64,000 bases of DNA from a virus. Shown here piece after piece: positions 2,189 to 60,570 of the stretch. The notes beneath the pieces are model-generated. The model saw only the letters and a list, made by a program, of their open reading frames with translations. It did no database searches and was not told where the DNA came from. The translations under genes and the position numbers were made by a program. The stretch is taken from the IMG/VR virus record IMGVR_UViG_3300045988_095964; one strand, written 5' to 3'. The first letter of the stretch is position 1; each line of letters opens with the position of its first letter.

Positions 2189-3277
2189 ATGAAAAAGGAG
2201 AAACAGATTAAGGCGTATACCCGTCGCACCAAATCCGGTAAGATGGTTGCGGTTAAAGCGCATACCGCAAAATACGATGCCGCTGATATGGCAAAAGAAG
2301 CACTCAAAAAGAAAGGTGCTGGTGACGAGTTTGAACAACGGTACAGGTCTCGGCAGTTTAAGAGTTACGCCGAAGCCGAAAAATACAAGAAGCATCCGGA
2401 TTACGCCGGAATCGAGGTCGGCAGTAACGGATATGTTTCCGTGGTATTCCGTGACAACAAAAAGAAACCTGCGGGTGCTGGTTCTACTGGGAGAACCAAG
2501 AAAGAGACCGACCAAGACAAGGCGGCTAAATTAAAGGAGGTGGTTGCCAAACTTAAAAAAGCAAAGGCGTCTGATACCGCTAAAACTAAGCCTGCTTCAA
2601 AGACTGACAGTACTTCCAAGAAGCAACCTGTCGGTGGTGGGTCTACCGGGCGTATGAAAAAAGATACCACGATTAAGAAAACTGCCCCCACAAAATCTAC
2701 TGATTCCGCAAGTGTATCATCGGCAGATTTTAAGGCTTGGTATCACGATCCGCATTCTGCCACTGGAAAGAAAGTTGCCACTCAATTACGAAAGCAACTG
2801 GGTATCTCTCAGTATAACCGGCTGAATAAGCAGGCTGACGAAAGCTACTCTACCCGTGGGCATTTAGCCATGTACAAGGCCCTCAGTGGTACACCTGCGA
2901 AAACTCCTGCCGGGTCAGGTAGTACGGGGCGTACCAAAAAGACATCCGGAGATTCGGAGAAACTCACCAAATTCAAAGAAGTGGTTTCTAAGCTCAAAAA
3001 GGCAAAGGAGGCTGACATGACCAAGAAGAAACCCGTAGGAGCTGGTAGTACTGGGAGGGTTAAGAAGACTCCGAAAGTAAATGGGGTTCGGGAATATGAC
3101 AGAGGTCCCGGTTTCAAGCGTTCAGGCACTCAAATTGAGTTTGTGAACGGAGAACTCGGTAGTGCAGAAGATTACAGTAAGGCAATTCGTGTCAAAAATC
3201 CAGACAAGGTCCTCAAAAAAGCTATTTCCGAATTTCGGAAAGACATGAGAGCTAAATATGGTTCTCGATGGGAGTAG
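2189..3277 (+). CDS. Lys-rich repeat protein with basic N-terminal hairpin-like motif
   Basis: N-terminus 'KQIKAYTRRTKSGKMVAVKAHTAKYD'. Four copies of 'P[AV]G[AGS]GSTGR[TMV]KK'. Two copies of 'K(E/F)..VV.KLKKAK'. Confidence 0.7.
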   Translation: MKKEKQIKAYTRRTKSGKMVAVKAHTAKYDAADMAKEALKKKGAGDEFEQRYRSRQFKSYAEAEKYKKHPDYAGIEVGSNGYVSVVFRDNKKKPAGAGSTGRTKKETDQDKAAKLKEVVAKLKKAKASDTAKTKPASKTDSTSKKQPVGGGSTGRMKKDTTIKKTAPTKSTDSASVSSADFKAWYHDPHSATGKKVATQLRKQLGISQYNRLNKQADESYSTRGHLAMYKALSGTPAKTPAGSGSTGRTKKTSGDSEKLTKFKEVVSKLKKAKEADMTKKKPVGAGSTGRVKKTPKVNGVREYDRGPGFKRSGTQIEFVNGELGSAEDYSKAIRVKNPDKVLKKAISEFRKDMRAKYGSRWE

Positions 3278-3576: not shown

Positions 3577-4116
3577 ATGGCAACTATCACACGGGTATTT
3601 GAGTTTGACGCCGCACACCGGGTAATGAATGAGCGCGTAAAGTGTTTCAACCTACACGGGCATCGTTTTCGGTTGGAGGTAACCTTTGACATTTCCCAAG
3701 AGTATTGGGGTCTTGGTTACCCTATCGACTTTAAGGAACTCAAACGAATCTTCGGCGGATTCATCGACCAATTTTTAGACCACGCCTGTATTCTTAATCC
3801 TCAGGATGACGAGATCATCAACATGTGCGACAAAAATAACTGGCGCATGTGGGTAATGGGTTTCTGCCTGCGGGATATTGACAAGAATCCCTCTGCTGAA
3901 AATCTGGCTGACGAATTATTCGTTTCATTCAAAGAACTGGCGACATTATGTCCCGAAAAGTTTACCATTAACTCGGTTCGGCTGTATGAGACGCCGAATT
4001 GTTGGGTTGATGTCAATTCGTCCGAGACCGAATTAACCGAAGCATTCCGACACTCTCTTACCAAGTGGAGGGAATCTATGGGTAACTTCGAATATGACGC
4101 GAGAAAATGCCAGTAA
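3577..4116 (+). CDS. queD: 6-carboxy-5,6,7,8-tetrahydropterin synthase
   Basis: 'FEFDAAHRV', 'CFNLHGHRFRLEV', 'IDFKELK', 'FLDHACILN' and 'NPSAENLA...LYETP' align with E. coli QueD motifs. Confidence 0.85.
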   Translation: MATITRVFEFDAAHRVMNERVKCFNLHGHRFRLEVTFDISQEYWGLGYPIDFKELKRIFGGFIDQFLDHACILNPQDDEIINMCDKNNWRMWVMGFCLRDIDKNPSAENLADELFVSFKELATLCPEKFTINSVRLYETPNCWVDVNSSETELTEAFRHSLTKWRESMGNFEYDARKCQ

Positions 4117-5756
4117 GAAAATCCATAAAGGAGGAAGGCTTCGTATTTGAAACCAAAGGAAAGAGTGCCGAAAGTATCGACACCTCAAGCGTTGAGGGTA
4201 AGACGGTCTCTTTCGACGCGCATTTCATTACGAACCGTATCATGGAGTTCGGTAAGATTCTTACCGGCATACCTCTGTATGAATATCAGGAAGCCATTGC
4301 GTATCGGATCATTTACTCGGTAATCACTTTCGAGGGTAGCGTTCTAACCGTCCTGCTGTCCCGTCAGTCGGGTAAGTCCGAGACAATGGCTTTTGTCATT
4401 GATACCCTAACCGTCCTGCTTCCGGCGCTTGCTAAAGTACTGCCGGAACTGGAACAGTTCTCCACTGGTTTCCGTGTTGGACTGTTTGCGCCGCAATCGG
4501 ATCAGGTTGTAACGACTTATTCGCGTGCTATGACAAGACTTAATTCGGCCAATGCCGAGATGATTCTCTCTGACCCGGATATTTCGGTATCTATGGAAAG
4601 TAACGTGCGCTTGTCACTGAGTAACGGATCGTTCTTGGCCGGACAAGTCGCCAGTAAGCAATCCAAGATCGAATCCAAGACGTATGACCTTGTAATATGT
4701 GAGGAGGCACAGGATATTGACGACTTTATCGTTCAGAAGTCTATCGAGCCTATGCTTTCGGCTACCGGTGGTACACTGCTTAAAGTAGGAACTACCGGTA
4801 TGACCAAGAACCACTTTTGGTATGAGATTCAGGCGAACCGTAACCATGACCGCCGATTGAAAGACCCACGGTTACGGAATCACTTCGAGTACGCATATAA
4901 GGAGATCATCGCCGCCCGTCGTGAACAGTATGAAAAAGACGGTAAGAAATTCCACCTCAACTATGAAGCGGACGTGCTTCGTAAAAAGGAACGTTGGGGA
5001 GAAGATTCCCAAGCGTTCAAACTTGCGTATGCGTTACAGTGGGATTTGGAGAGCGGTATGCTTATTACCGATAAGGAGTTCAACAATCTGCTGAACCGGA
5101 AACTCGGTTATCAGGACCCCGATATTCGTGATTTTATCGTTGCCGGCCTCGATATTGGTAAGTCTCCTGCGGAGACGGTTCTTACGATTGGCCGTGTATG
5201 GTACGGGGATGACCCGTTCGAAAAACCCTATAAACAGATACTCGCATGGGTATGTTTAGGAGGTCTCGACTACGAAGCCCAACACCATGAAATTCTCAAC
5301 TATATTGTAGAATACAACATTTCTACTATATTTGCAGACTATACGGGTGTTGGTAAAGCTGTCGTTGACAGATTGATTTATGCCTGCGGCGAACATGTCA
5401 ATATCGAACCGTATACGTTTACGGCGCAGAGTAAATCTGACATGTGGTTTAATTTTATCTCGGACATTCAAACCAAGCGTATTATTGTGCCTGCGAACAA
5501 ACAAGTGCGAGGTACGATGGAGTTCCAAAAGTTCGAGGAGCAAATGAAGAACTGTCAGAAGTATTTCAACGGCCCGTACATGGTTTGTGAAAAATCGGAC
5601 GGCTACTTTGATGACATGGTAGACAGTTGTGCGTTGATGTGTTTGGCGGCTAACTCCGACCGGCAGGTTGACAATGAAATGGAAGTTACCGATAATCCGC
5701 TGTACGATGGAATTACTGCGACTATCGGCGCAATAAGGAGAAACTCTTACACTTAG
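4107..5756 (+). CDS. terL: terminase large subunit
   Basis: 549 aa. Walker A-like 'SRQSGKSE' and Walker B 'DLVICEEAQDI'. C-terminal nuclease-sized domain. Lies immediately upstream of the portal gene. Confidence 0.9.
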   Translation: MPVRKSIKEEGFVFETKGKSAESIDTSSVEGKTVSFDAHFITNRIMEFGKILTGIPLYEYQEAIAYRIIYSVITFEGSVLTVLLSRQSGKSETMAFVIDTLTVLLPALAKVLPELEQFSTGFRVGLFAPQSDQVVTTYSRAMTRLNSANAEMILSDPDISVSMESNVRLSLSNGSFLAGQVASKQSKIESKTYDLVICEEAQDIDDFIVQKSIEPMLSATGGTLLKVGTTGMTKNHFWYEIQANRNHDRRLKDPRLRNHFEYAYKEIIAARREQYEKDGKKFHLNYEADVLRKKERWGEDSQAFKLAYALQWDLESGMLITDKEFNNLLNRKLGYQDPDIRDFIVAGLDIGKSPAETVLTIGRVWYGDDPFEKPYKQILAWVCLGGLDYEAQHHEILNYIVEYNISTIFADYTGVGKAVVDRLIYACGEHVNIEPYTFTAQSKSDMWFNFISDIQTKRIIVPANKQVRGTMEFQKFEEQMKNCQKYFNGPYMVCEKSDGYFDDMVDSCALMCLAANSDRQVDNEMEVTDNPLYDGITATIGAIRRNSYT

Positions 5757-5760
5757 TGCT

Positions 5761-7347
5761 ATGGGTATAAACACAGGAGGAATGGACCCTACCGGTATGG
5801 GTAGTTACACGGGTTATCCGGGGTCGAAATATTGGAATGTTGACAGTCGCCCGCTATCGGAAGCTACCAGCGTTCTGCGTTCATTCGTTATTACGAATAT
5901 CGTTCAGGACAGTCAGTGGGAGATTGACCGAATGACGAGGTACTATCTGTTCTGGAAGTTCTACGATGGTCTCCATTGGAAAGACTTCAACGACGGAATG
6001 ATCTCGTTCAACTATGTTCGGGCATTTATCGACAAGGTTAATATGTTCTTGCTCGGTAACGAGGCTTTCTCGTTCCAAGTAAAGAGTTATTACTCGGACC
6101 AAATCGACGATGAAATCGAAAAGATTGCCGAGGAACTGATGATGTACCACTGGGGCAAATCCGATAAATCCCAGTTGGCTTACGAGATTCTGCAAATGGG
6201 AAGTATCACCGGCGACTGTTGGATCGGTGCTTCATGGCAAGGCGGTGAATACGAAAAGTACGTCAAAGTAAAGGTGTTCGATTCCCGGCAGTGTTTTCCC
6301 ATCTTCAAAAACGGCGACTTCAATACATTGGAGCGTTTCTTGGTTCGCCAACCTTTGGACTCCACTAAGGAGCAACCGTACAAACTGTACGTAATACAGT
6401 ACACCGATAAGAGTATTGAGACATGGTATCAAAAAGATGTCACGATTAACGATTCATCGGTGGCTAAGTACGAACACAAGAAATACCCCAATAAATATGG
6501 ATTTATTCCGGTCGTCCATATTAAGAATCGTCCGAATGCCGCCAAATTCTACGGAACTTCTGACGCGAGCGACATTCTTAAACTGAACAAGGTGTACAAC
6601 GAGATGAACCAGCAGATCAAGGCCGTCATCGACTATCACGTAACGCCGACCACGGTAATTACCGGCGCATCCGCTAAGTCGCTGAAAAAAGGTCTTGGTC
6701 AAATTTGGTCTGGCTTACCTGCTGAGGCTAACGTGTTCAATCTTGGTCTGGACGTAGACCTTTCTGCCGCTCTTGAATTTATCAAGGACCTTAAAACGGC
6801 GATGCACGAATTATCCGACGTGCCGGAAAATGCCCTCGGTAAAATTCAGGCCATCAGCAATACTTCCGCCGCCGCGTTGCAGATCACCTATCACCCGTTA
6901 CTGCAACAGGCCAACATTAAGGCTATGACATATGGTGAGGGTATTACCGAGATGAACTCTATGATTCTCCGTATTCTGGAAATCGAGGACCCGAAAAACG
7001 AACGCCTTAAAAAACTGCGTAAGTTGGCTCCCCGGTTCCGTTCGGAGATGCGCATTGTTCCCGTCTTTGCTTATGGTTTCCCGAAAGACCGCATGGATGA
7101 ACTCAATCGTGCCGAAATCGAGCTTCGTCTCAAACTCGGTTCCCGTAAAGAGATCATGGAGCGTATGGGTAAACAGAACATCGACGCGCTTATGGAACAG
7201 ATTGATGATGATACGCTTCACCAAGCGTTACTTCAAGCAAAACTTCAAGAGGCTCTCAGTGGAGTTCCTCCCGAACCGGGTATCAATCCGGATGATGATT
7301 CCGGTGCTATCGAGGAACCCGAATTGAATCCTAATCCTGCCGAATAA
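5761..7347 (+). CDS. portal protein
   Basis: 528 aa, directly after terL. Acidic C-terminal tail. Assigned by position and size. Confidence 0.8.
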   Translation: MGINTGGMDPTGMGSYTGYPGSKYWNVDSRPLSEATSVLRSFVITNIVQDSQWEIDRMTRYYLFWKFYDGLHWKDFNDGMISFNYVRAFIDKVNMFLLGNEAFSFQVKSYYSDQIDDEIEKIAEELMMYHWGKSDKSQLAYEILQMGSITGDCWIGASWQGGEYEKYVKVKVFDSRQCFPIFKNGDFNTLERFLVRQPLDSTKEQPYKLYVIQYTDKSIETWYQKDVTINDSSVAKYEHKKYPNKYGFIPVVHIKNRPNAAKFYGTSDASDILKLNKVYNEMNQQIKAVIDYHVTPTTVITGASAKSLKKGLGQIWSGLPAEANVFNLGLDVDLSAALEFIKDLKTAMHELSDVPENALGKIQAISNTSAAALQITYHPLLQQANIKAMTYGEGITEMNSMILRILEIEDPKNERLKKLRKLAPRFRSEMRIVPVFAYGFPKDRMDELNRAEIELRLKLGSRKEIMERMGKQNIDALMEQIDDDTLHQALLQAKLQEALSGVPPEPGINPDDDSGAIEEPELNPNPAE

Positions 7348-7436
7348 GCTGAAATTTTGATTTTTCAGAAAAACTGCTTACTTTTGGACAGGCTATCAGT
7401 ATAAATTCTTTTTCGTCTAACTAAAACTTTCGTATT

Positions 7437-7634
7437 ATGGCAGGGTTACAAACTCTCGACAAATCGAATCCGGAGGCACTGCACGACATCGGGCAGACCA
7501 AACAGCCTCTCGTCGGCCCCAAGTTCGTCAATCCGGGTACTCCCGAATCGGCGCTTGTAAGCCGTGAGCAAATGACGCAGGCTACCGTAAAAGGTAACGG
7601 CGCAGAGGTGCTCAAAAACAACCTCATTAAGTAA
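7437..7634 (+). CDS. hypothetical small protein
   Basis: 65-aa ORF between the portal and scaffold genes. Confidence 0.4.
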   Translation: MAGLQTLDKSNPEALHDIGQTKQPLVGPKFVNPGTPESALVSREQMTQATVKGNGAEVLKNNLIK

Positions 7635-7676
7635 CATCAGAAAACTGTATTACTCCAAAATCGTAGAAATCACCGT

Positions 7677-8423
7677 ATGAATCCGCAAGAAAGAACAACC
7701 GTAGCAATTCCGGAGAGTATCGAACTGAATGGCCAAACTTATGTGGTTAAAGATACTCCCGAACTGATGGCGTTCAGAGTCGCCGTCGCTCAAGCCGAGA
7801 AATCAAAACTGCACTCGACTTTTGAGACCCTGCGTAACCAGATCGAAACTCTTAAAGCCGCAAATGTCGTTCAGTCGTCCGCTCCCTTCGATCTGAACGC
7901 CCTGTTGTCGGCTATGGAGCAGAAATTCGTTACGCGGGACGACCTCAAAGAGACGATTGGTGAAGTTATCCAACCCGTTCTCTCGGCTACCGAGCAACAG
8001 CGCGTCAACGACCTCAATCAGTACCGGGAGCGTCTCATCCGTGACAACGAGGCAACGTGTATTCCCGAACTTGTCAAGGGTAACAGCAAGGAGGAACTCG
8101 AAAAGTCTCTCAGAGACAGTATCGAGCTTCGTGCCAAGTACAATTCTCCGGTGATGATTCCGGGTGCCCAGCCTACCAAGGTTACGGACCCGCTCATCGC
8201 TAAGAAGATGGCCGAAATGGCCGGTGCCGTAGATTCGACGCCTGCTCCCGCGCCTGTACCGGCAACACCTGCTACGCCCGCATCGGCAATGCCGGAAGTT
8301 CCGTCTCGTGCCGTCCCGGAAGTTTCACAAGGTCCCAATTTCAAGCAGATGACTATGGACGAGTTCCAGCAGAAACGCGAACAACTCCTGCACCAGTTGG
8401 AAGCTGAATTCGGGAATAAGTAG
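7677..8423 (+). CDS. scaffolding protein
   Basis: Predicted coiled-coil, Ala/Pro-rich tract 'TPAPAPVPATPATPA'. Lies immediately upstream of the capsid gene. Confidence 0.6.
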   Translation: MNPQERTTVAIPESIELNGQTYVVKDTPELMAFRVAVAQAEKSKLHSTFETLRNQIETLKAANVVQSSAPFDLNALLSAMEQKFVTRDDLKETIGEVIQPVLSATEQQRVNDLNQYRERLIRDNEATCIPELVKGNSKEELEKSLRDSIELRAKYNSPVMIPGAQPTKVTDPLIAKKMAEMAGAVDSTPAPAPVPATPATPASAMPEVPSRAVPEVSQGPNFKQMTMDEFQQKREQLLHQLEAEFGNK

Positions 8424-10904: not shown

Positions 10905-11336
10905 ATGCTTCTTACCAAAGGTAAATTCCAACAATACCGGGCTATATTTTATAACAAATTGAAGCAGACCCCGTATAAGATTTCACTCGAAATCGTTACG
11001 GTAGAGGACCCGACCTCGGAAGGGTTTTCAATCGAAGAATTTGTCGGTAGCTCTCCAAGAAGTTCCCGGTTTTACGAGTTTCAGGCCCTTTATGAGCGTG
11101 AAATTCCGTTGCGTACCCGTGAAAAATACGGGCTTCCCAAAGAAGTAAACGGGATTGTGTATCTGTCGCCGCTCCAGCTTGTCCCTGTACTGGGAACGTT
11201 TAAGTTGGACTGGAACAAGACCAAAGTACACTTTGCCGGACATACGCAAGTTGTTGAGAAGATCGAATATTTGGAGCCATTGTATGACAGTTGCGTAGGT
11301 ATTCAGATTTTTGTCAAAGACGACCTCAAAGCATAA
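10905..11336 (+). CDS. hypothetical structural protein
   Basis: 143 aa. TAATG junction with the next gene. Confidence 0.5.
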   Translation: MLLTKGKFQQYRAIFYNKLKQTPYKISLEIVTVEDPTSEGFSIEEFVGSSPRSSRFYEFQALYEREIPLRTREKYGLPKEVNGIVYLSPLQLVPVLGTFKLDWNKTKVHFAGHTQVVEKIEYLEPLYDSCVGIQIFVKDDLKA

Positions 11337-11641
11337 TGACAACAGTAAAAACGCACAAGCGAAAGGGGCGTAATAAGGTGTCCGTTGTACGGAAGCATGA
11401 CCGAAAGGATAAAGTTTCCGCTCTGCGTGGCGCCAAGGACTTTTCTGAAAAACAGCGTGACAAACTCTCGTCGAAAGGGGAGGCTCTCCCCGACGGTTCT
11501 TATCCGATTGCAAGTAAGCGTGATTTGGCCAATGCTATTTCGTCGTATGGCCGCGCTAAGAATCCCGAAATAGTCAAACGCTGGATTGTAAAACGTGCGA
11601 AAGCCCTCGGTGCGAGTGAGATGATCCCTAAAAACTGGTAG
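11336..11641 (+). CDS. basic-hairpin-motif protein
   Basis: N-terminus 'VKTHKRKGRNKVSVVRKHDRK'. C-terminus 'LPDGSYPI...DLANAISSYGRAKNPEIVKRWIVKRAKALG'. Confidence 0.6.
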   Translation: MTTVKTHKRKGRNKVSVVRKHDRKDKVSALRGAKDFSEKQRDKLSSKGEALPDGSYPIASKRDLANAISSYGRAKNPEIVKRWIVKRAKALGASEMIPKNW

Positions 11642-12019: not shown

Positions 12020-12510
12020 AGATTCCTGCGTTCCCTGCTGTTAGGCTGGCTTCTATGGTTCCTCGAAATATGCGGAAAGTTCCCAAGTCATATTTGAAGA
12101 ATCCGAAGTTCAAAAAGCCGAAAGTCTCCGCATTCAAAAAGGATATGGAGAATCTCGGTGCTGAAATTGCAGAGGAGTTTAAGGAAACGGTCATTCGCAA
12201 CATCAAGACAAACGCCTATGGGTTTCATCTGTCAGAGTCCACTTTAAGACAGAAGTCGGGGGAAACCCCGCTTATTGACAGTGGCGTGATGCTGGATGCC
12301 ATCTATCGGGAGGGTACTTTTGTTTCGGTGGAAGACACTCCGCGCACGGATAGTCCTCTTACCAATTTGGAGCTCGCCAAAGTACACGAATACGGTACAA
12401 AGGATAAACATATTCCTGCGCGTCCAGTATGGCGAAACACTTTCCGGGACTACAAACCAAAGGCCAAAAAACGAATTCAGAAATTCTTTAAGACGAACGG
12501 TAATGGGTAA
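12016..12510 (+). CDS. head-tail joining protein (HK97 gp10-like)
   Basis: 'PLIDSGVMLDAI' and 'HIPARPVW' resemble gp10-family motifs. Confidence 0.5.
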   Translation: MKIPAFPAVRLASMVPRNMRKVPKSYLKNPKFKKPKVSAFKKDMENLGAEIAEEFKETVIRNIKTNAYGFHLSESTLRQKSGETPLIDSGVMLDAIYREGTFVSVEDTPRTDSPLTNLELAKVHEYGTKDKHIPARPVWRNTFRDYKPKAKKRIQKFFKTNGNG

Positions 12511-13012
12511 CGTATCGGTCAAGTCCTACAAACGCAGGAGCACGAAGGGTAAAGTTTATACCGTTCGTGCGTATTCACGTGGTGGGGGTAAGAAACCAAA
12601 CATGGGAAATATGGAGATCAGTCGCGGTGCTGAAAAAGTTTCCGACGCCGAGATTCAGAAGTACTACGACAAACAACAAGAAGAAATGAAGGAGTTTGTC
12701 CGAAAACTTCAAGGGGTTGCCAAAGAGTACGGTGTCAAAGGTGGTACTGAGGCTCTCCTGCAAACTCCTGCCGCCCGTAAGAATCCCATTGCCGCGGCTA
12801 AACAGTCTGCACGCATAGAGACTGACCGGATTATGAAAGAGGTCAATCCTACGCTTCATACGGAGGCTCCTGCCCGACGTGCACCGCGTGGCGGTCTGTT
12901 ATCCCGGTTGAAATCCATGTACACGGAGGAACTCGCTAAGGCGTCCAAGAAATATGGAACTTACGACGAGTTTTTTGGTGCTCGCAAGTCTCTCAAAAAG
13001 AAACGAAAGTGA
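12503..13012 (+). CDS. basic-hairpin-motif protein
   Basis: ATG at 12503. N-terminus 'VSVKSYKRRSTKGKVYTVRAYSRGGGKK'. Confidence 0.55.
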   Translation: MGNVSVKSYKRRSTKGKVYTVRAYSRGGGKKPNMGNMEISRGAEKVSDAEIQKYYDKQQEEMKEFVRKLQGVAKEYGVKGGTEALLQTPAARKNPIAAAKQSARIETDRIMKEVNPTLHTEAPARRAPRGGLLSRLKSMYTEELAKASKKYGTYDEFFGARKSLKKKRK

Positions 13013-17992: not shown

Positions 17993-18337
17993 ATGAAAAT
18001 GGAAAAACAAGTAAAAGCACACACTCGCCGGACAAAGTCCGGTAAGAGTGTTGTGGTTAAGGCCCACTCTGCTAAATACGATTCTGGAGGTGGCCTCGCC
18101 AAGAAAAACATTACCTCTAAGAGAGGCTCTGGAAAAGAGTTGATGTCTAAGGCTATCTCTATGGCTTCTTTAGAACGTAAGGCTCAAAAAGCCGAACGTG
18201 ACTACTATGCCGGCAAGATAGATTCCAACACTTACGATAAGATACAGAAATCCGTAGATTCCGCTATCGGGTACCTGAGAAGTACCCCCAAAAAGACTTC
18301 TCGGAGTACTGTTAAAAAAGGTGCTGGTCGTAGGTAA
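17993..18337 (+). CDS. basic-hairpin-motif protein
   Basis: The N-terminus 'MKMEKQVKAHTRRTKSGKSVVVKAHSAKYD' shares about 24/30 residues with the 2189 ORF. Confidence 0.6.
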   Translation: MKMEKQVKAHTRRTKSGKSVVVKAHSAKYDSGGGLAKKNITSKRGSGKELMSKAISMASLERKAQKAERDYYAGKIDSNTYDKIQKSVDSAIGYLRSTPKKTSRSTVKKGAGRR

Positions 18338-55002: not shown

Positions 55003-56028
55003 ATGCCGCACAAGAAAATTTCTACGGGGCTATTGAAGCGCAAACGTGTTTCCAAAGAACTGGTTCGACGAAACAATGTCGTTGTTACCAAGCCAACCTC
55101 CAAAACTTGCTGGGTTCCTATACCTAATTATGAGGGTATCTATGAAATCTCTGATAGTGGAAAGATACGTTCTGTGGAAAGAGATGTTGAGTACACTACT
55201 GGAAAAACTTGTCATTTACGTAGCCAATTATTAAGACCATCTATTGATAAAGATGGTTATTTAATAACACATCTTTATCGTGGGAATAAGACTGAAACTT
55301 ACAAGGTTCATCGTTTAGTAGCAACAGCCTTTATCCCTAATCCTAATGGGTACCCCGATGTAAATCATAAAGACGAGGATAAATCGAATAACGTAGTGTC
55401 TAATTTAGAGTGGTGTACTCGAAGATACAATGTTACTTATGGTAGTCGAGCCGACAAAGCGTCTGAAAAATTAACCAGATTTTTATATCAACGTTTTTCT
55501 TTGTCCGGAGAGTACATAGATACTCTTTCCCACAAAGAGCTTAAAAGTATGGGGTTCAATTTGGGTACTATATGGAGGTGTTCTATTGGTAAAGCAAATG
55601 TGTCCTCTGGGTTTCGATGGCATCGTATTCCTGTTGAGGATGCTCCTAAATTTAGGAATCCTCGTATTCGTAACGATGGCTCTGTGATTAATAGAGCAAC
55701 ATCTTCCGGAACGTGGAAAAGTTTCGAGCGAGTAGTCGCTAAATTTTTCGGGACCAAACGTGTTCCGTTATCCGGTAGTAACAGTGGACATAATACCAAT
55801 AGCGATTCCCTGCATCCTACATTGTATATTGAGTGTAAGGTTCGTCAGAAGTCCGCTGTATGGTCGTTGTTCAAAGATACCGAAGTAAAGGCCAAGTTCG
55901 AAAAGAAGATTCCGGTTGTCGCCATCAAACAAAAAGGCGAACAAGGCTACCTACTGGTTATCCGACCCGAAGATTTGGGTAAAATTCATACGATACAACA
56001 ATCTGTAACAGAAGCCGATGGGGTATAA
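55003..56028 (+). CDS. HNH homing endonuclease (NUMOD4 + HNH + NUMOD1-like) fused to a PD-(D/E)XK domain
   Basis: 'IPNYEGIYEISDSGKIRS', 'HRLVATAFIPNPNGYPDVNHKDEDKSNNVVSNLEW' and 'GFRWHRI'. The C-terminal 'SFERVVAKFFGTKRVPLSGSNSG..SDS..YIECK' is paralogous to the 47964 ORF. Confidence 0.85.
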   Translation: MPHKKISTGLLKRKRVSKELVRRNNVVVTKPTSKTCWVPIPNYEGIYEISDSGKIRSVERDVEYTTGKTCHLRSQLLRPSIDKDGYLITHLYRGNKTETYKVHRLVATAFIPNPNGYPDVNHKDEDKSNNVVSNLEWCTRRYNVTYGSRADKASEKLTRFLYQRFSLSGEYIDTLSHKELKSMGFNLGTIWRCSIGKANVSSGFRWHRIPVEDAPKFRNPRIRNDGSVINRATSSGTWKSFERVVAKFFGTKRVPLSGSNSGHNTNSDSLHPTLYIECKVRQKSAVWSLFKDTEVKAKFEKKIPVVAIKQKGEQGYLLVIRPEDLGKIHTIQQSVTEADGV

Positions 56029-56159: not shown

Positions 56160-56444
56160 ATGGAAATTAACACGGAATCAAACACTGTAACTTTAAGGTG
56201 CAAATCATCGACCGACGCGAACAAACTTGCTGGAAGTATTCATTCTGCATTTCAGAATGACCCTGCCAAAAAGATACTGATTCGTGTTATCGGTGCAGGC
56301 GCACTCAACCAAGCGACGAAAGCCTGTATTTTGGCAAACAAGTTCTTTGCAAAGAAAGGAATCATCCTCGCTCTGCAACCCTCGTTCCAAACTATCGGCG
56401 AAATCACTGCGATTGAGCTAAAGGTTCTGTTTCTCAAAAATTAG
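56160..56444 (+). CDS. SpoVS-like (Alba-superfamily) protein
   Basis: 'LIRVIGAGALNQATKACILANKFFAKKG...ITAIELKV' matches the SpoVS signature 'IGAGA.NQA.KA.AIA'. Confidence 0.75.
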   Translation: MEINTESNTVTLRCKSSTDANKLAGSIHSAFQNDPAKKILIRVIGAGALNQATKACILANKFFAKKGIILALQPSFQTIGEITAIELKVLFLKN

Positions 56445-56556: not shown

Positions 56557-56682
56557 ATGGCAAGAACCGCAAGAACCGCCGCTACCGGAAGGGGCCGTGG
56601 TCGTGCCGCCGCCGCTCCCGCGCGTGGTGGTCGTAGAAGTGGAGGCCGTGGCCGTGCCGCCGCTACCGCTTCGAAGTCGTAA
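56557..56682 (+). CDS. Arg/Gly/Ala-rich 41-aa basic micro-protein
   Basis: 'MARTARTAATGRGRGRAAAAPARGGRRSGGRGRAAATASKS'. Bracketed by its own promoter and terminator. Locally GC-rich. Confidence 0.5.
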   Translation: MARTARTAATGRGRGRAAAAPARGGRRSGGRGRAAATASKS

Positions 56683-56701
56683 TCAAACCTGCGACGATTT
56701 T

Positions 56702-56737
56702 GAGGACCTACCGATTCGTTGGCAGGTCCTCTCTTTT
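56702..56737 (+). terminator. rho-independent terminator
   Basis: GAGGACCTACC / GGCAGGTCCTC stem (one mismatch), 8-nt loop, then TCTTTT. Confidence 0.65.
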
Positions 56738-56750
56738 AATAGGCATAAGT

Positions 56751-57479
56751 ATGGAAAAGAAGATTTTATTGTTTTCAGGTGGTTTTGATTCCATGTTGCA
56801 GGAGTGGTTGATTCGTCCGGATTTGCTCCTGTACGTAGATATGAAAACCTCCTACGCCGAACGCGAGATCGAAGCTCTCAAACGTTTACCTCCTTATTAC
56901 GTAGATCGGTTAAAGGTGATCGAGTTCCCTCTTGGTGAATACGAACGGGAGAACAAATACCTGCCCTACCGGAATCTTATTTTGGGGACGCTTGCCATGC
57001 AGTATGGGCAACACGTTTATTTCGGTTTCAACGAAGCTGACAACGCTCCCGATAAGGACGACGTATTTATTCGCAGACTGACTACTTTGTTCCGGCATCT
57101 GAACAAACACTGCATCGGCGACATGGGGTGGGAGAACACGCATTTCAGTTTCTCGGCGCCGTACAAACACCTAACCAAAACCGAGATGGTGGCGGAGTGT
57201 CTGAAACAAGGTATGCCCGTTGACTGGATTCAGAAAATCCGGTCCTGCTATGATTCTGCAAGTGAGATCGGTTGCGGTGTTTGCCGTCCGTGTCTTAACC
57301 GAGGGATCGCGTTAATCAATAACGGGATTTACGAACCGGAGTTGTTCGATACGCCTATCGACGAGGTTCGGTTGTGGAATCTTATGAAAGAAACCGCTTC
57401 CTACGACGGTGGCGATTATTCTGCGAAATACTATGCCGACATTAAAAAGGCGCACCGATTATTACGACAAAGAGGTTAA
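56751..57479 (+). CDS. queC: 7-cyano-7-deazaguanine synthase-like PP-loop ATPase
   Basis: 'KILLFSGGFDS', 'LPYRNLIL', 'FSAPY..LTKTEM' and 'SCYDSASEIGCGVCRPCLNR'. Confidence 0.8.
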   Translation: MEKKILLFSGGFDSMLQEWLIRPDLLLYVDMKTSYAEREIEALKRLPPYYVDRLKVIEFPLGEYERENKYLPYRNLILGTLAMQYGQHVYFGFNEADNAPDKDDVFIRRLTTLFRHLNKHCIGDMGWENTHFSFSAPYKHLTKTEMVAECLKQGMPVDWIQKIRSCYDSASEIGCGVCRPCLNRGIALINNGIYEPELFDTPIDEVRLWNLMKETASYDGGDYSAKYYADIKKAHRLLRQRG

Positions 57480-58371
57480 TCGAGCGGTTCTTTTTTTCTC
57501 CGCTTCCTCTACCGGCGACACTGAACAGTTGTTAGAGTTCGGTATTCGAGAGATTCTTGTGTCTTACTTCTATATGCGCAAGAGTTTACCGTATTACGAT
57601 GGAGTACTCGACAAACTGCACAAGGAGAAAGGTCTTTTTATGACGGACTCCGGGGCGTTCTCTTTTATGGCGTCCGGTGTCATCAAAGATGAGATGTATA
57701 CTGAAAAGTATTGGTTGCCTTACTTGGAGGAGTACGTTGACTGGCTGTGGAAGCATAAGGATAAAATCTTTGTCGCCGCGAATCTCGATCTGGACAAAAT
57801 TGTGGGTCGTGAAGTGGTCGATAAATGGAACCGAAAGTATTTCGAACCTCTCGAAAAGGCTGGTTTGCAGATCGTTTATGTGGCGCACGAAAACGACACT
57901 GACGATAAGCACGCTATAAAACATTTTGGACAGTACTGTAAACGATATAAGTATGTCGGGATTAACCAGTCTCAGAAAGAGTACGCTTCACATTTTTATC
58001 AAATGGCCAAGCATCATAATGTCCGTGTACACGGTTTTGCTTGGACTGAGATGAATATTGTAAAGCACTACCCATTCTTTTCTCTGGACTCTACGACGTG
58101 GCTTGGAGGTGTTCGGTATGGAACCACTTATGACTACGACGGTAAGAATTTTCGCACCATCGACTACAAGCATAAGTACATAAGAAAATCCCGGCGTTTG
58201 AAATATCGAAAAATTGGCGTATCTTTGGATGACGTTCTTGGTGAAGAAAAACGAAAACCGATTAACCGCATGAACTTGCTCGGTTGGATGGGCTTCCGTA
58301 AAGAGTTTCTCCGCATGGCGAATCTTAAACTCCACAACAGAACTGTTGCACACTATACACGAAAACCATGA
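57433..58371 (+). CDS. dpdA: DpdA-like DNA-guanine transglycosylase (TGT superfamily)
   Basis: 'REILVSYFY' and 'LFMTDSGAFSF'. Lies between queC and queE. The start is uncertain (GTG 57409 or ATG 57433). Confidence 0.6.
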   Translation: MPTLKRRTDYYDKEVNRAVLFFSASSTGDTEQLLEFGIREILVSYFYMRKSLPYYDGVLDKLHKEKGLFMTDSGAFSFMASGVIKDEMYTEKYWLPYLEEYVDWLWKHKDKIFVAANLDLDKIVGREVVDKWNRKYFEPLEKAGLQIVYVAHENDTDDKHAIKHFGQYCKRYKYVGINQSQKEYASHFYQMAKHHNVRVHGFAWTEMNIVKHYPFFSLDSTTWLGGVRYGTTYDYDGKNFRTIDYKHKYIRKSRRLKYRKIGVSLDDVLGEEKRKPINRMNLLGWMGFRKEFLRMANLKLHNRTVAHYTRKP

Positions 58372-59120
58372 GCGAAGACGTAACAAAAAAGCGTATTGCC
58401 GAAATTCGTGAGGCCGGTGAAGACTTTGACAAACTCAGAAAATGTCTTTGTCCGTTCTTTCAGAAAGGTGATTGCCCCGACTGTATCAGTTGCTTATGCG
58501 AGGATGACGATGTTCTCGAATGTAAGAAGTACTTTTTGGAACACATCAAAATCCATCCTATGGATGTTTGGTCTCCGGAGTTTGACGTCGTTAAGGTTCA
58601 ATCCCGTGAGAAAGTTTCCATTAACGAGACCATCGGTATCGGAATTAACTGTGACACTTGTTACATGTATGACAAGTGCCCTTTATACAAGATGGGGTAT
58701 GCTTGCGGGATCGACTGGGGTGACGGAAGACCCTCCACTCCCGAAGCATACTACGAGTTCTTGGTAAACACTCAGTATGAGCGTGTTAAGCGTGCATCGG
58801 TGTTTGAGAAAATCGACGGAGGTGTTCCCGACGCTAACCTTTCCGGTGAAATGGATCGGTTGTCCGGTTATATTCTCAGTCGGTTGGATTTGAACCGGGA
58901 ACGTCTGTCGGTGAATATCGAAGCTACTGGTTCGGCTTCCGGTAGTAGTGGCGGTGGTGGTATACTGGCCAAGTTATTCGGTGGCGGTGTGAGTGCTCCC
59001 GCAACGAAAGAGATTCCTGCCGAAACCGAAACCCGTAAGGATTTGATTACTGAGGCCGAAGTAGTAACTGAACCTGTAAAGGTTCCAAGACGACGAAGAA
59101 ATGTCGGTGACAGTGAGTAA
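58368..59120 (+). CDS. Cys-rich hypothetical protein in the deazaguanine operon
   Basis: ATGA coupling to dpdA. Cys clusters 'CLCPFFQKGDCPDCISCLCEDDDVLEC' and 'CDTCYMYDKCPLYKMGYAC'. Confidence 0.55.
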   Translation: MSEDVTKKRIAEIREAGEDFDKLRKCLCPFFQKGDCPDCISCLCEDDDVLECKKYFLEHIKIHPMDVWSPEFDVVKVQSREKVSINETIGIGINCDTCYMYDKCPLYKMGYACGIDWGDGRPSTPEAYYEFLVNTQYERVKRASVFEKIDGGVPDANLSGEMDRLSGYILSRLDLNRERLSVNIEATGSASGSSGGGGILAKLFGGGVSAPATKEIPAETETRKDLITEAEVVTEPVKVPRRRRNVGDSE

Positions 59121-59421
59121 ACATTTGCGAAAGGGTAAGAACAAGGTTTCTGCCGTGCGCCGTCACTACCGGAAAGGTAGTACCCATAAGACGGTTAAAG
59201 GCCGAAAGTACGTTTTCGTTGATGGCTTCTGGAAACACGACGATTACCCGAATGCTCCCAAAGCAGGTTGGTCTTATGAGCATCTTGTAAGGGAGCGTGC
59301 AAAATTACTCAATGACCTGCAAGACGGTCTTGAGAATCGTGATATTTTACCCCCGCGCAAATATGGGTTACTATCACGACGTATTCGTAAGATAAACCGA
59401 ATACTTAAAAATAAAAAGTAA
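59101..59421 (+). CDS. basic-hairpin-motif protein
   Basis: N-terminus 'VSKHLRKGKNKVSAVRRHYRKGS'. Confidence 0.5.
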   Translation: MSVTVSKHLRKGKNKVSAVRRHYRKGSTHKTVKGRKYVFVDGFWKHDDYPNAPKAGWSYEHLVRERAKLLNDLQDGLENRDILPPRKYGLLSRRIRKINRILKNKK

Positions 59422-59870
59422 TGGATGCGTTATTGAAATCATTAGTAGGTGCTCACATCGAGTATCGGAGCAGGACATCCGGTGAGGATTCCGCTTCGTG
59501 GGAGCGCGTACTCCGTAGCGAACGTAAGAAAATACAGGAGACCATCGAGATCGCCGAGCAATCCAGCACCACAGCTAAAATCATGCTGTACGTGGAGATG
59601 CTTAACTACTACCGGAATCAACCGTTCTACATGATGATCCGGAGCAGTATCGTACTGGGTCGAGTTAGGCCGCAGGTAATAAAATTACTATCGCGCCTTA
59701 ACTCTACGGAAAGGTGTTTCATGTTATCCGAAGCATTGAACAAGGGTCCCAAAGACCCCGACCGAAAGACATACGTAGCTACTGCTTCGTTTATGCTCCG
59801 GACTTACGAGAGACACCTGCCCGCATTACGGAAATTTCTGACCTCGGAAGAACTTTTAACTTGTGTGTAG
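59421..59870 (+). CDS. hypothetical helical protein in the deazaguanine operon
   Basis: TAATG coupling. 149 aa. Confidence 0.5.
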   Translation: MDALLKSLVGAHIEYRSRTSGEDSASWERVLRSERKKIQETIEIAEQSSTTAKIMLYVEMLNYYRNQPFYMMIRSSIVLGRVRPQVIKLLSRLNSTERCFMLSEALNKGPKDPDRKTYVATASFMLRTYERHLPALRKFLTSEELLTCV

Positions 59871-59871
59871 T

Positions 59872-60570
59872 ATGTACAGAGTCAACACCATTTACCCCGC
59901 ATTTATGGGGGAACAAAACAAATTCGGCATTGGCCGTAGATGTGTGTTCGTTCGTTTCAGTGGATGTAATATCCGCTGTTACGAAAAAACTATGGGCATC
60001 ACTTGTGACACTCCCGAAGCCTTGTGCGGAAAGAGTGGTGTTGGTATGAGTACTGCCGAGATCGTCGATACACTTCGGGAATATAACATTCGGACTATCT
60101 GCCTAACTGGTGGGGAGCCGCTTATGCAAAATCCCGTTGAACTACTGGAGGAGCTTAGTCGAGAAGGTTACAGTGTGGTTGTAGAGACCAACGGAACCAT
60201 CTCGGTGGCTCCTTTTGTGCATATACGCAATGTCAGCTTCGTTGTTGACTACAAGGCGCCGAGTGCCGGGGTAAGGTCTTTCGAGTTGGACAACTTTAAG
60301 TATCTGCGTCGGGACGATTACCTCAAATTCGTCATTTACGACGACGAAGATTACGAGGATATGAAGCGTATCTGCGATATGATGAAAGGAAAAGTAAATC
60401 TTGTTGCCGGCTTATTTTGGGGAGCGAAAATAGGCTACGTCGAACTCACTAACCGTATCTTGCGCGACAGATTACCGCTGAACCTCAATATGCAGGTTCA
60501 CAAGATGATGGTACTCTATGACGAGTACCCGGAGGCAGTCAGAACATTGAATGTCCCCAAAGAGTTGTAA
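59872..60570 (+). CDS. queE: 7-carboxy-7-deazaguanine synthase (radical SAM)
   Basis: 'RRCVFVRFSGCNIRCY', 'CDTPEA' and 'CLTGGEPL'. Confidence 0.85.
   Translation: MYRVNTIYPAFMGEQNKFGIGRRCVFVRFSGCNIRCYEKTMGITCDTPEALCGKSGVGMSTAEIVDTLREYNIRTICLTGGEPLMQNPVELLEELSREGYSVVVETNGTISVAPFVHIRNVSFVVDYKAPSAGVRSFELDNFKYLRRDDYLKFVIYDDEDYEDMKRICDMMKGKVNLVAGLFWGAKIGYVELTNRILRDRLPLNLNMQVHKMMVLYDEYPEAVRTLNVPKEL

Follow-up and report, generated by a model that had tools for sequence, protein, structure and literature searches.

DpdA is the signature enzyme of 7-deazaguanine DNA modification in phages. Here we describe a stretch of viral DNA of 64,000 nt (IMG/VR record IMGVR_UViG_3300045988_095964; hereafter the window, to whose positions all coordinates refer) in which three open reading frames (ORFs), named here ORFs A, B and C, lie between dpdA and queE. 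The order of the array is QueC, DpdA, ORF A, ORF B, ORF C, QueE. The joint explanation that we consider likely is that DpdA is encoded in pieces, with ORF A as a subunit acting in trans, that ORFs B and C are accessories, and that there is no tailoring enzyme among the three.

A preliminary description of the window had put the three ORFs forward as candidate new components of the pathway. They are real, operon-coupled genes, but ORF A is, judging by its profile matches, a part of DpdA and not a new component. The reading frames were confirmed at 58368-59120 (250 aa), 59101-59421 (106 aa) and 59421-59870 (149 aa), all on the + strand. Profiles of the flanking genes and tight junctions likewise confirmed that they are wedged, as operon-coupled genes, between dpdA and queE: DpdA and ORF A share an ATGA overlap, ORFs A and B overlap by 20 nt, ORFs B and C meet in TAATG, and ORF C is separated from QueE by a gap of 1 nt. 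All three are conserved, with homologues or loci numbering 200+ for ORF A, 67 for ORF B and, by profile, 58 for ORF C, and they keep their syntenic positions among phages in which protein identity is down to 21-65%. A scan of the operon for sigma-70 promoters and terminators gave no sites above the level of shuffled sequence.

The two pieces of DpdA

The features on which the argument depends are the following.

57433..58371, + strand: DpdA-N, 312 aa, predicted catalytic TIM-barrel half of DpdA (PHROG 887 positions 5-228 of 509, E=7.4e-35)
58368..59120, + strand: ORF A, predicted C-terminal piece of DpdA (DpdA-C), 250 aa, pI 5.0 (PHROG 887 positions 364-494, E=3.8e-14)
58368..58622, + strand: N-domain of ORF A, aa 1-85, modelled as a three-helix bundle with C28, C39, C42 and C52 (nt 58449-58523; AlphaFold2 (AF2) model and alignments)
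58629..58997, + strand: C-module of ORF A, aa 88-210 (alignments, AF2 model and hhalign)
58989..59117, + strand: tail of ORF A, a variable acidic linker ending in the basic patch KVPRRRRN, predicted to be disordered (predicted local distance difference test, pLDDT, 54-69)

A single profile of 509 positions, PHROG 887, is covered at its opposite ends by DpdA-N and by ORF A, in which the matching region is aa 93-227. This profile is annotated as "queuine tRNA-ribosyltransferase". Because ORF A and the ORF upstream of it match the two ends of the profile, ORF A is read as part of DpdA itself, that is, as its C-terminal module, split off, and DpdA in the window as a gene in pieces. The preliminary description had matched ORF A to no known Que or Dpd protein, which was not borne out, given the PHROG 887 match and an hhalign match between the ORF A family and eight long DpdAs (99.9%, E=4.7e-31) that aligned columns 85-209 to 388-510 of a 526-aa DpdA. 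By tblastn, aa 95-186 of ORF A fall within the 501-aa DpdA of Streptomyces phages, e.g., GiJojo gene 181, annotated "dpdA-like tRNA-guanine transglycosylase". The 757-aa DpdA of Bacillus phage BCD7 consists of the barrel and, after a long linker rich in K and E, of CNTCYKAGECPEYKPDYAC ... DGGMADP ... GGILSRLF.

These long DpdAs (GiJojo gp181 and BCD7 gp021) have a DpdA1-like barrel, as in the window, and share with ORF A the C-x2-C-x5-C-x8-C knuckle, the Q..R/DGG helical hairpin and the GGIL..LF motif. In them both parts are held in one polypeptide by a low-complexity linker, whereas the window has two genes. ORF A contains no TIM barrel, and at its N-terminus it has an additional C4 helical domain, which none of the 31 fused forms tested possesses. 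The literature searched held nothing on a C-terminal module of DpdA, on split DpdAs or on the DpdA of Bacteroides phages.

The upstream piece is a complete DpdA1-type catalytic TIM barrel as far as its motifs and extent can tell. DpdA-N, for which there is an alternative GTG start at 57409, matches by tblastn the DpdAs of BCD7, 9g, CAjan-like phages and mycobacteriophages; its DSG, HGF and S-x-DS-TT-W motifs align with the DpdA of phage 9g, and its end coincides with the end of the globular N-domain and the start of the linker in long DpdAs. The DpdA of Enterobacteria phage 9g (DpdA1, 317 aa) is of the same length class as DpdA-N, with DSG, HGF and DS-x-x-W motifs in common, and differs in that it is without a C-terminal module, neither fused nor adjacent. 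For this enzyme the insertion of preQ0 into DNA has been shown experimentally, and it is active alone (PMC6884629). Since the barrel of the window keeps the 9g motifs and the 9g enzyme acts without the module, the split lies at a domain boundary, where the linker is in long DpdAs.

In tRNA-guanine transglycosylase (TGT) and in bacterial DpdA (bDpdA), CxCx2Cx22H is a structural zinc site that pins Ins8 to helix alpha-8 (PMC10164549). The site lies within the barrel of bDpdA and was not found in DpdA-N, which has a single Cys, while the Cys clusters of ORF A are spaced differently. The N-terminal CxC of ORF A was also considered as the TGT zinc motif and was rejected, its C26 not being conserved.

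How far the module and the barrel belong together was assessed in two sets of sequences. An exhaustive search of 1.84 billion representative proteins yielded 442 relatives of ORF A at E<=0.001, the best 149 clusters of which were classified as follows.

N-domain and C-module, <100 aa upstream (standalone, ~235-300 aa): 75 clusters of 149
N-domain and C-module, 174 aa upstream (P0268): 1 cluster
N-domain only: 1 cluster
C-module only, at least 250 aa upstream: 31 clusters, the members inspected being long DpdAs and none having the N-domain
C-module only, 100-250 aa upstream: 24 clusters, with an HNH endonuclease domain in several of the members inspected
C-module only, <100 aa upstream (short proteins or fragments): 17 clusters

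A hidden Markov model (HMM) of the N-domain matched 76 of the 149 clusters and none of the 31 long forms. Furthermore, we inspected 80 IMG/VR loci retrieved with alignment A2, of which 45 hold a standalone homologue and 35 do not. A census of co-occurrence with dpdA had been proposed in the preliminary description, and its result is consistent: all 45 standalone loci have a DpdA barrel gene upstream, directly so in 44, with QueD in between in the other (L058). Among the remaining 35 loci, 33 have the module in frame within a protein of ~475-720 aa that matches the DpdA barrel as well, at its N-terminus, and two encode proteins of 484-488 aa, a size like that of the fused forms. Every readable context shows the module either fused to a DpdA barrel or encoded beside one; three short standalone C-modules (P0312, P0296 and P0268) are on contigs of 1-1.6 kb with no usable context. 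The guilt by association that had been invoked for all three ORFs therefore holds for ORF A, which is tied to dpdA, and comes down for ORFs B and C to synteny within one phage lineage.

ORFs B and C in the slot before queE

59101..59421, + strand: ORF B, 106 aa, very basic, pI 10.8 (67 homologues and AF2 model)
59421..59870, + strand: ORF C, 149 aa, lineage-specific and fast-evolving (profile from syntenic genes)

From their sequences and distribution, ORFs B and C are read as lineage-specific accessory proteins without enzyme features. None of ORFs A, B and C matched an enzyme family. Pfam, NCBIfam, PADLOC and PDB sequences yielded no match of any kind to the three, and ORF C was without a match in PHROG as well. 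The homologues of ORF B are 55-77% identical to it and all 100-120 aa in length. The gene is present in 17 of 45 loci, corresponding to about five of 14 related lineages, and is missing from about nine. Its AF2 model (pLDDT 89; predicted template modelling score, pTM, 0.73) consists of seven short strands over aa 2-46, forming a beta-meander that includes the motif V-K-x-H-x-R-K-G-K-N-K-x-S-V-V-R-K-H-x-R (nt 59113-59172), and then a basic helical hairpin. A Foldseek search of the PDB with this model returned only L29-like hairpins (best E=0.84) and no PDB analogue. ORF B is probably an optional nucleic-acid-binding accessory protein and not an enzyme. A 505-nt contig (P0188) joins an NrdR zinc-ribbon N-terminus to the core of ORF B (VFVDGFWKHDD...), in a chimera that probably arose during assembly.

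The basic N-terminal motif of ORF B was said to recur in four other ORFs, and it was indeed found at the N-termini of those starting at 2189, 11336, 12503 and 17993, the one at 12503 being an internal Met of ORF 12296-13012. This N-terminal motif of ~25 aa, with the consensus V-K-x-H/Y-x-R-R/K-x-K-x-G-K-x-V-x-V-K/R-x-H-x-x-K/R, is common to five very basic proteins of the window that are otherwise unrelated (2189-3277, 11336-11638, 12503-13012, 17993-18337 and 59101-59421), and none of them has a Pfam or PHROG match. Three of the other four are encoded at 11-18 kb, in the region after the terminase and portal genes, and one upstream of TerL. The motif could be a virion-targeting or a DNA-binding signal. 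The protein at 2189-3277, encoded upstream of KTSC, QueD and TerL, has 362 aa, is rich in Lys, Thr and Ser and contains four "G(A/S)GSTGR(T/M/V)KK" repeats, and it looks histone-like or internal.

Only four close homologues of ORF C are found by word-based search. The profile finds the gene in 58 loci, always between ORF A or B and QueE, with 21-47% identity across lineages. L058 and L101 do not have it, nor does any lineage in which DpdA is fused or HNH-linked. L101 is without both ORF C and the part of the ORF A tail beyond GGGILAQLFGGG, which hints that ORF C possibly interacts with that tail.

It is possible, if doubtful, that ORFs B and C are unrelated to DNA modification and are morons, anti-defence proteins or virion-internal proteins in a recombination-prone slot between dpdA-C and queE. 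The stretch from ORF A to QueE is a variable accessory slot in relatives, where it may hold a DNA-methyltransferase-like gene (L031:8662-9399, motif DPFGGVG), a Zn-ribbon and MazG-like pyrophosphatase pair (L027:3033-3531) or other small ORFs, such as two of 73 aa (L029:9598-10052). The motif that ORF B has in common with four very basic proteins encoded elsewhere fits the same idea, as does the dispensability of each gene in some relative. However, in every context read the homologues of ORF B occupied this slot and no other, ORF C is kept in 13 of 14 related lineages, and both genes are translationally coupled to the flanking pathway genes. As for ORF C, the odds seem to us slightly better for a non-enzymatic protein that partners or regulates the split DpdA than for an unrelated moron.

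The cysteine-bearing module and its relatives

ORF A, read as the C-terminal piece of DpdA, has the Cys strings, the Gly/Ser stretch and the basic tail ascribed to it in the preliminary description, and the count of 11 Cys is also right (positions 26, 28, 36, 39, 42, 44, 52, 95, 98, 104 and 113). In alignments of 23 close and 63 diverse homologues only eight of the 11 are conserved, with the spacing C28-x10-C39-x2-C42-x9-C52 and C95-x2-C98-x5-C104(P)-x8-C113, i.e., two C4 knuckles. The first lies in the N-domain, where all four Cys are invariant or nearly so. The AF2 model has a mean pLDDT of 79.6, which rises to 93-97 over aa 11-70; about 40% of the protein is predicted to be disordered, and the tail region is variable in alignment A2. 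The second knuckle (C95/C98/C104(P)/C113, nt 58650-58706) belongs to the C-module, as do a helical hairpin at aa 125-175 (nt 58740-58892), which is confident in the AF2 model and has an invariant Q136, R139 and DGG loop, and a Gly-flanked motif, GGGGILAKLFGGG (nt 58950-58988), inside which the model places a short helix. The C-module motifs are present also in Streptomyces phage GiJojo gp181 and Bacillus phage BCD7 gp021.

With the ORF A model as query, Foldseek found only generic helical hairpins in the PDB (best E=1.2), and in BFVD it found the protein's own family and long DpdA-like proteins; the profile found nothing among PDB sequences. ORF A has no HNH match in Pfam or PHROG, the HNH domain being confined to longer relatives.

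The C-module also resembles the C-termini of a group of actinophage proteins. The first, weak links were matches of ORF A to PHROG 6902 (E=0.039) and by tblastn (E=0.3-0.8), a Foldseek match of its model in BFVD to the "TerS" of Gordonia phage Jumbo (E=0.057) and, in the reverse direction, a match of Woes gp6 to PHROG 887 (E=0.0057). These TerS-position proteins are of ~450-545 aa, come from 116 actinophage records, belong to PHROG 6902 and 16015 and are annotated as TerS or as hypothetical; examples are Gordonia phage Woes gp6 (L102:2640-4037) and Rhodococcus phage Mbo2 gp1 (L103:16-1383). In every listed record with a terminase gene overlapping the match, they lie directly upstream of the terminase. 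Their C-termini read VLCDSCSLWRLCPSYRSGEVCGLP..., with C-x2-C-x5-C-x8-C spacing as in ORF A, followed by a helix with a Q..R motif. An eight-member profile of these C-termini was used as the hhalign query and gave the following matches.

ORF A family (A3): 95.2%, E=2.8e-8
Long DpdAs (A6): 94.3%, E=9.5e-8
Reversed A3 and 20 column-shuffled versions: at most 1.4%, E at least 0.036
ORF B and ORF C families: 0.2% and 0.7%, E=0.36 and 0.076

What PHROG 6902 and 16015 share with ORF A is the knuckle and the helices that follow it, a likeness of only ~80 residues to families called TerS by position. The N-terminal ~280 aa of these proteins are not detectably DpdA-like, having no match to the DpdA barrel, Pfam or the PDB, and the proteins have no match to any solved TerS. 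They sit directly upstream of TerL and ORF A does not: it starts at 58368, TerL is at 4107-5756, and it is QueD that lies directly upstream of TerL. Upstream of TerL the window has ORFs starting at 247, 675, 1643, 2189 and 3329, none of them recognised as a TerS, and QueD occupies the place where one would be expected. From these matches the module looks like a mobile unit carried by three kinds of DNA-handling protein, namely the DpdA barrel, HNH nucleases beside DpdA and TerS-position proteins. The simplest common denominator would be DNA binding or oligomerisation on DNA, and a link to packaging is possible.

A more specific, and in our view unlikely, explanation is that ORF A is a TerS-type factor whose module serves packaging, pac-recognition or docking on TerL and recruits DpdA to DNA that is being packaged; by extension, modification would be coupled to packaging and ORF A might even be the missing TerS of the phage. 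The homology of the module to the C-terminus of proteins directly upstream of TerL, annotated as TerS, speaks for it, with hhalign E values of ~1e-8 set against the reversed and shuffled controls, as do the reciprocal weak HMM matches, the structural match to the Jumbo protein and the presence of QueD where a TerS would be expected. On the other side, the label on the actinophage proteins is positional and transitive, several of the GenBank records being hypothetical and none of the proteins matching a solved TerS; ORF A is ~54 kb downstream of TerL within the window; the similarity is short; and the match of the ORF A model to the Sf6 TerS structure was insignificant (E=4.5). Since the module is also found on HNH nucleases, generic DNA binding explains its distribution equally well. 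At least as unlikely is the fuller version, in which a TerS-type module docks the transglycosylase on the packaging machinery or on pac-proximal DNA, leading to 7-deazaguanine on capsid-bound genomes, and ORF A may double as the missing TerS in the Bacteroides-phage lineage.

Very unlikely, in turn, is the explanation raised in the preliminary description, that all three ORFs encode novel enzymes for the synthesis or tailoring of the modified base and that ORF A depends on an Fe-S cluster. The tight operon coupling between dpdA and queE and the eight conserved Cys, including a C-P, are in its favour, and phage deazaguanine clusters are known to hide novel enzymes, among them DpdL, DpdM and DpdN (PMC10516641). 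However, ORF A has no match in Pfam or NCBIfam, including none to Fer4 or Radical_SAM, and its conserved spacing corresponds to neither the ferredoxin nor the radical-SAM motif (CxxCxxCxxxCP and CxxxCxxC). The cluster that had been called ferredoxin-like is the knuckle before the helical hairpin, which in unsplit DpdAs is carried on a long flexible linker, and the spacing is zinc-like, so that an Fe-S tailoring role for ORF A is not supported. Further points against tailoring are that ORF A appears to be the non-catalytic end of DpdA, that much of it is predicted to be disordered, and that ORF B, itself optional, is a 106-aa basic beta-meander plus hairpin without a match to any pocket-like fold. 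Moreover, ORFs B and C are confined to one phage lineage and are absent from other DpdA-encoding lineages with the same module. The metal of ORF A, going by its Cys spacing, is probably a structural Zn.

Origin of the split, pathway context and significance

The idea of a single long dpdA, interrupted by a frameshift error of sequencing or assembly or else translated whole through programmed frameshifting, would agree with the ATGA overlap, which puts ORF A in the -1 frame of DpdA-N, and can be dismissed, for the split recurs in 45 independent loci and in the isolate genome of BS162P1, with varied junctions and in one case an intervening QueD gene, the junction has no canonical slippery heptamer, and the standalone forms bear an extra N-terminal domain that the fused forms tested do not have. 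Among relatives the junction ranges from overlaps of 4-38 nt to gaps of 2-49 nt and uses both alternative frames; because its frame and spacing vary in this way, we rejected both a sequencing error and a conserved, programmed frameshift site.

The reading of DpdA as a gene in pieces is consistent with what surrounds the junction. Two adjacent ORFs together cover a protein that is contiguous in relatives, and an endonuclease domain is found at the split point in others: an HNH-plus-module fusion comes directly after DpdA-N (~292-295 aa) in all three contigs with readable context (L094, L113 and L114). The HNH fusion P0276 had no match in IMG/VR, and its context was read from an encoding contig. 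Because these relatives keep the HNH domain fused at exactly the same junction, the split probably arose via insertion of a homing endonuclease. Inteins are present as well. A metagenomic long DpdA (P0287) has one inside the module knuckle, between ...CDTC and CYMKDKCP..., and a metagenomic HNH-plus-module fusion (P0290) has one inside the HNH domain. In L017 (~6457-7728) a LAGLIDADG intein of ~424 aa lies in frame in the DpdA barrel, at the active-site motif between DS and TTW; it starts with Ser (SVGYDS...) and ends ...VVHN before T, its insertion point corresponding to ~58090 in the window (SLDS/TTWLGG). The same barrel intein occurs in L019, L020, L022, L023, L031 and L055 and is absent from the window and from L018 and L021, siblings with ~99%-identical flanks. 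With HNH fusions at the junction and inteins in both halves, the dpdA locus is a hotspot for these selfish elements.

A precedent for such a split is the NrdA of Aeromonas phage Aeh1, an essential phage enzyme whose gene is fragmented by a mobile endonuclease, mobE, so that each of the pieces, NrdA-a as well as NrdA-b, is expressed separately. The pieces assemble through tails derived from the mobile element, the sequences acquired at the split being needed for assembly (PMC3045599). The enzyme of the window is a different one, and the endonuclease is gone from its lineage while still fused at the junction in relatives. By analogy with Aeh1, the pieces of DpdA may assemble in a like manner, and the N-domain specific to the split form of ORF A would be a docking or assembly domain.

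We therefore propose the following arrangement. ORF A would be translated separately, coupled to dpdA by the ATGA overlap, and would most likely re-associate with the barrel and act in trans as a non-catalytic, metal-stabilised (probably Zn) subunit for DNA binding, oligomerisation or targeting. This subunit would serve the exchange of guanine for a 7-deazaguanine (preQ0-type) base by DpdA. ORF B, one of the five phage proteins that share the basic motif, would be a small, basic, probable nucleic-acid binder and an optional insert, and ORF C a lineage-specific, non-enzymatic accessory, possibly the partner of the ORF A tail. Bacterial DpdA depends on a second protein that binds DNA, DpdB (PMC10164549), and the dpd system of Salmonella Montevideo resembles the proposal in outline, in that a transglycosylase barrel works with a separately encoded DNA-binding partner. 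DpdB is, however, a ParB-like ATPase unrelated in sequence to ORF A, and the two two-protein systems are not homologous.

Several points weigh against this arrangement. The association of DpdA-N with ORF A is drawn from analogy, and a role in DNA binding or assembly is deduced solely from the fusion partners of the module (DpdA barrel, HNH nucleases and TerS-position proteins), which has no structural or functional precedent in searches of PDB structures and sequences. Zn and Fe-S are both compatible with the sequence of the ORF A knuckles. The 9g-type DpdA works without the module, the contribution of which could be small or regulatory. Lastly, ORF C is without informative homology, and its loss together with that of the ORF A tail was seen in a single contig (L101).

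The other pathway genes of the window are as follows.

56700..57479, + strand: QueC-like gene (Pfam QueC E=2.5e-15; PHROG 1550 E=8.5e-20; NCBIfam QueC/QatC-like), its likely true start being the ATG at 56751 (MEKKILLFSGGFDS)
59872..60570, + strand: QueE, radical SAM 7-carboxy-7-deazaguanine synthase (PHROG 2076 E=1.2e-26; NCBIfam TIGR04349 E=1.2e-36), with an alternative GTG start at 59863
3577..4116, + strand: QueD (PTPS; Pfam PTPS E=1.1e-26)

Within the window QueD is apart from the cluster, at a distance of ~53 kb from the other pathway genes, and extends into the start of TerL (4107-5756); TerL and the portal were identified in the same Pfam search. QueF, ArcS and Gat-QueC were not found among the window ORFs scanned. 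Because QueD, QueE, QueC and DpdA are present and these three were not found, the predicted product of the pathway is dPreQ0.

Just upstream of the deazaguanine cluster, and in the same place in all related loci, is a SpoVS-like gene (56160-56444, in an ORF from 56037). Bacillus phage BCD7 (gp031) and unrelated long-DpdA contigs (L070, L088 and L089) likewise have one close to their DpdA clusters, and the association of this gene with DpdA across lineages is broader than that of ORFs B and C. In the window, between the SpoVS-like gene and QueC, is a tiny ORF (56557-56682; 41 aa, Ala/Gly/Arg-rich and strongly basic), and in BS162P1, L099 and L101 the equivalent position holds an A/G/K/R-rich ORF of 31-41 aa. 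A NUMOD4/HNH_3 homing-endonuclease gene with a RusA-like C-terminal region, at 55003-56028, is polymorphic among near-identical contigs, being of full length in the window and L016, with a best-matching ORF of only ~140 aa in L014 and L015.

Two contigs of a different phage lineage (L094:1-9080 and L113:2-3949) have larger deazaguanine clusters beside a split DpdA. The cluster of L094 comprises FolE, QueE, a Cys-rich 182-aa protein, a 529-aa protein, a GNAT acetyltransferase, two QueC-like genes and a 311-aa protein, and that of L113 contains Gat-QueC. The genes without assignment in these clusters are better candidates for tailoring enzymes than ORFs A-C, and the 11-Cys protein of the window is not one to be pursued as a new Fe-S tailoring enzyme.

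Annotation pipelines leave proteins of the ORF A type as hypothetical, e.g., in Bacteroides phage BS162P1. Assigning ORF A to DpdA, as one of its halves, sets right the gene inventory for a large group of gut phages of the Bacteroides type. The natural split would also provide a handle on the function of the module, as the barrel and the module can be expressed separately. If the link between the module and the TerS-position proteins is a functional one, it would suggest how the modification is directed to phage DNA.

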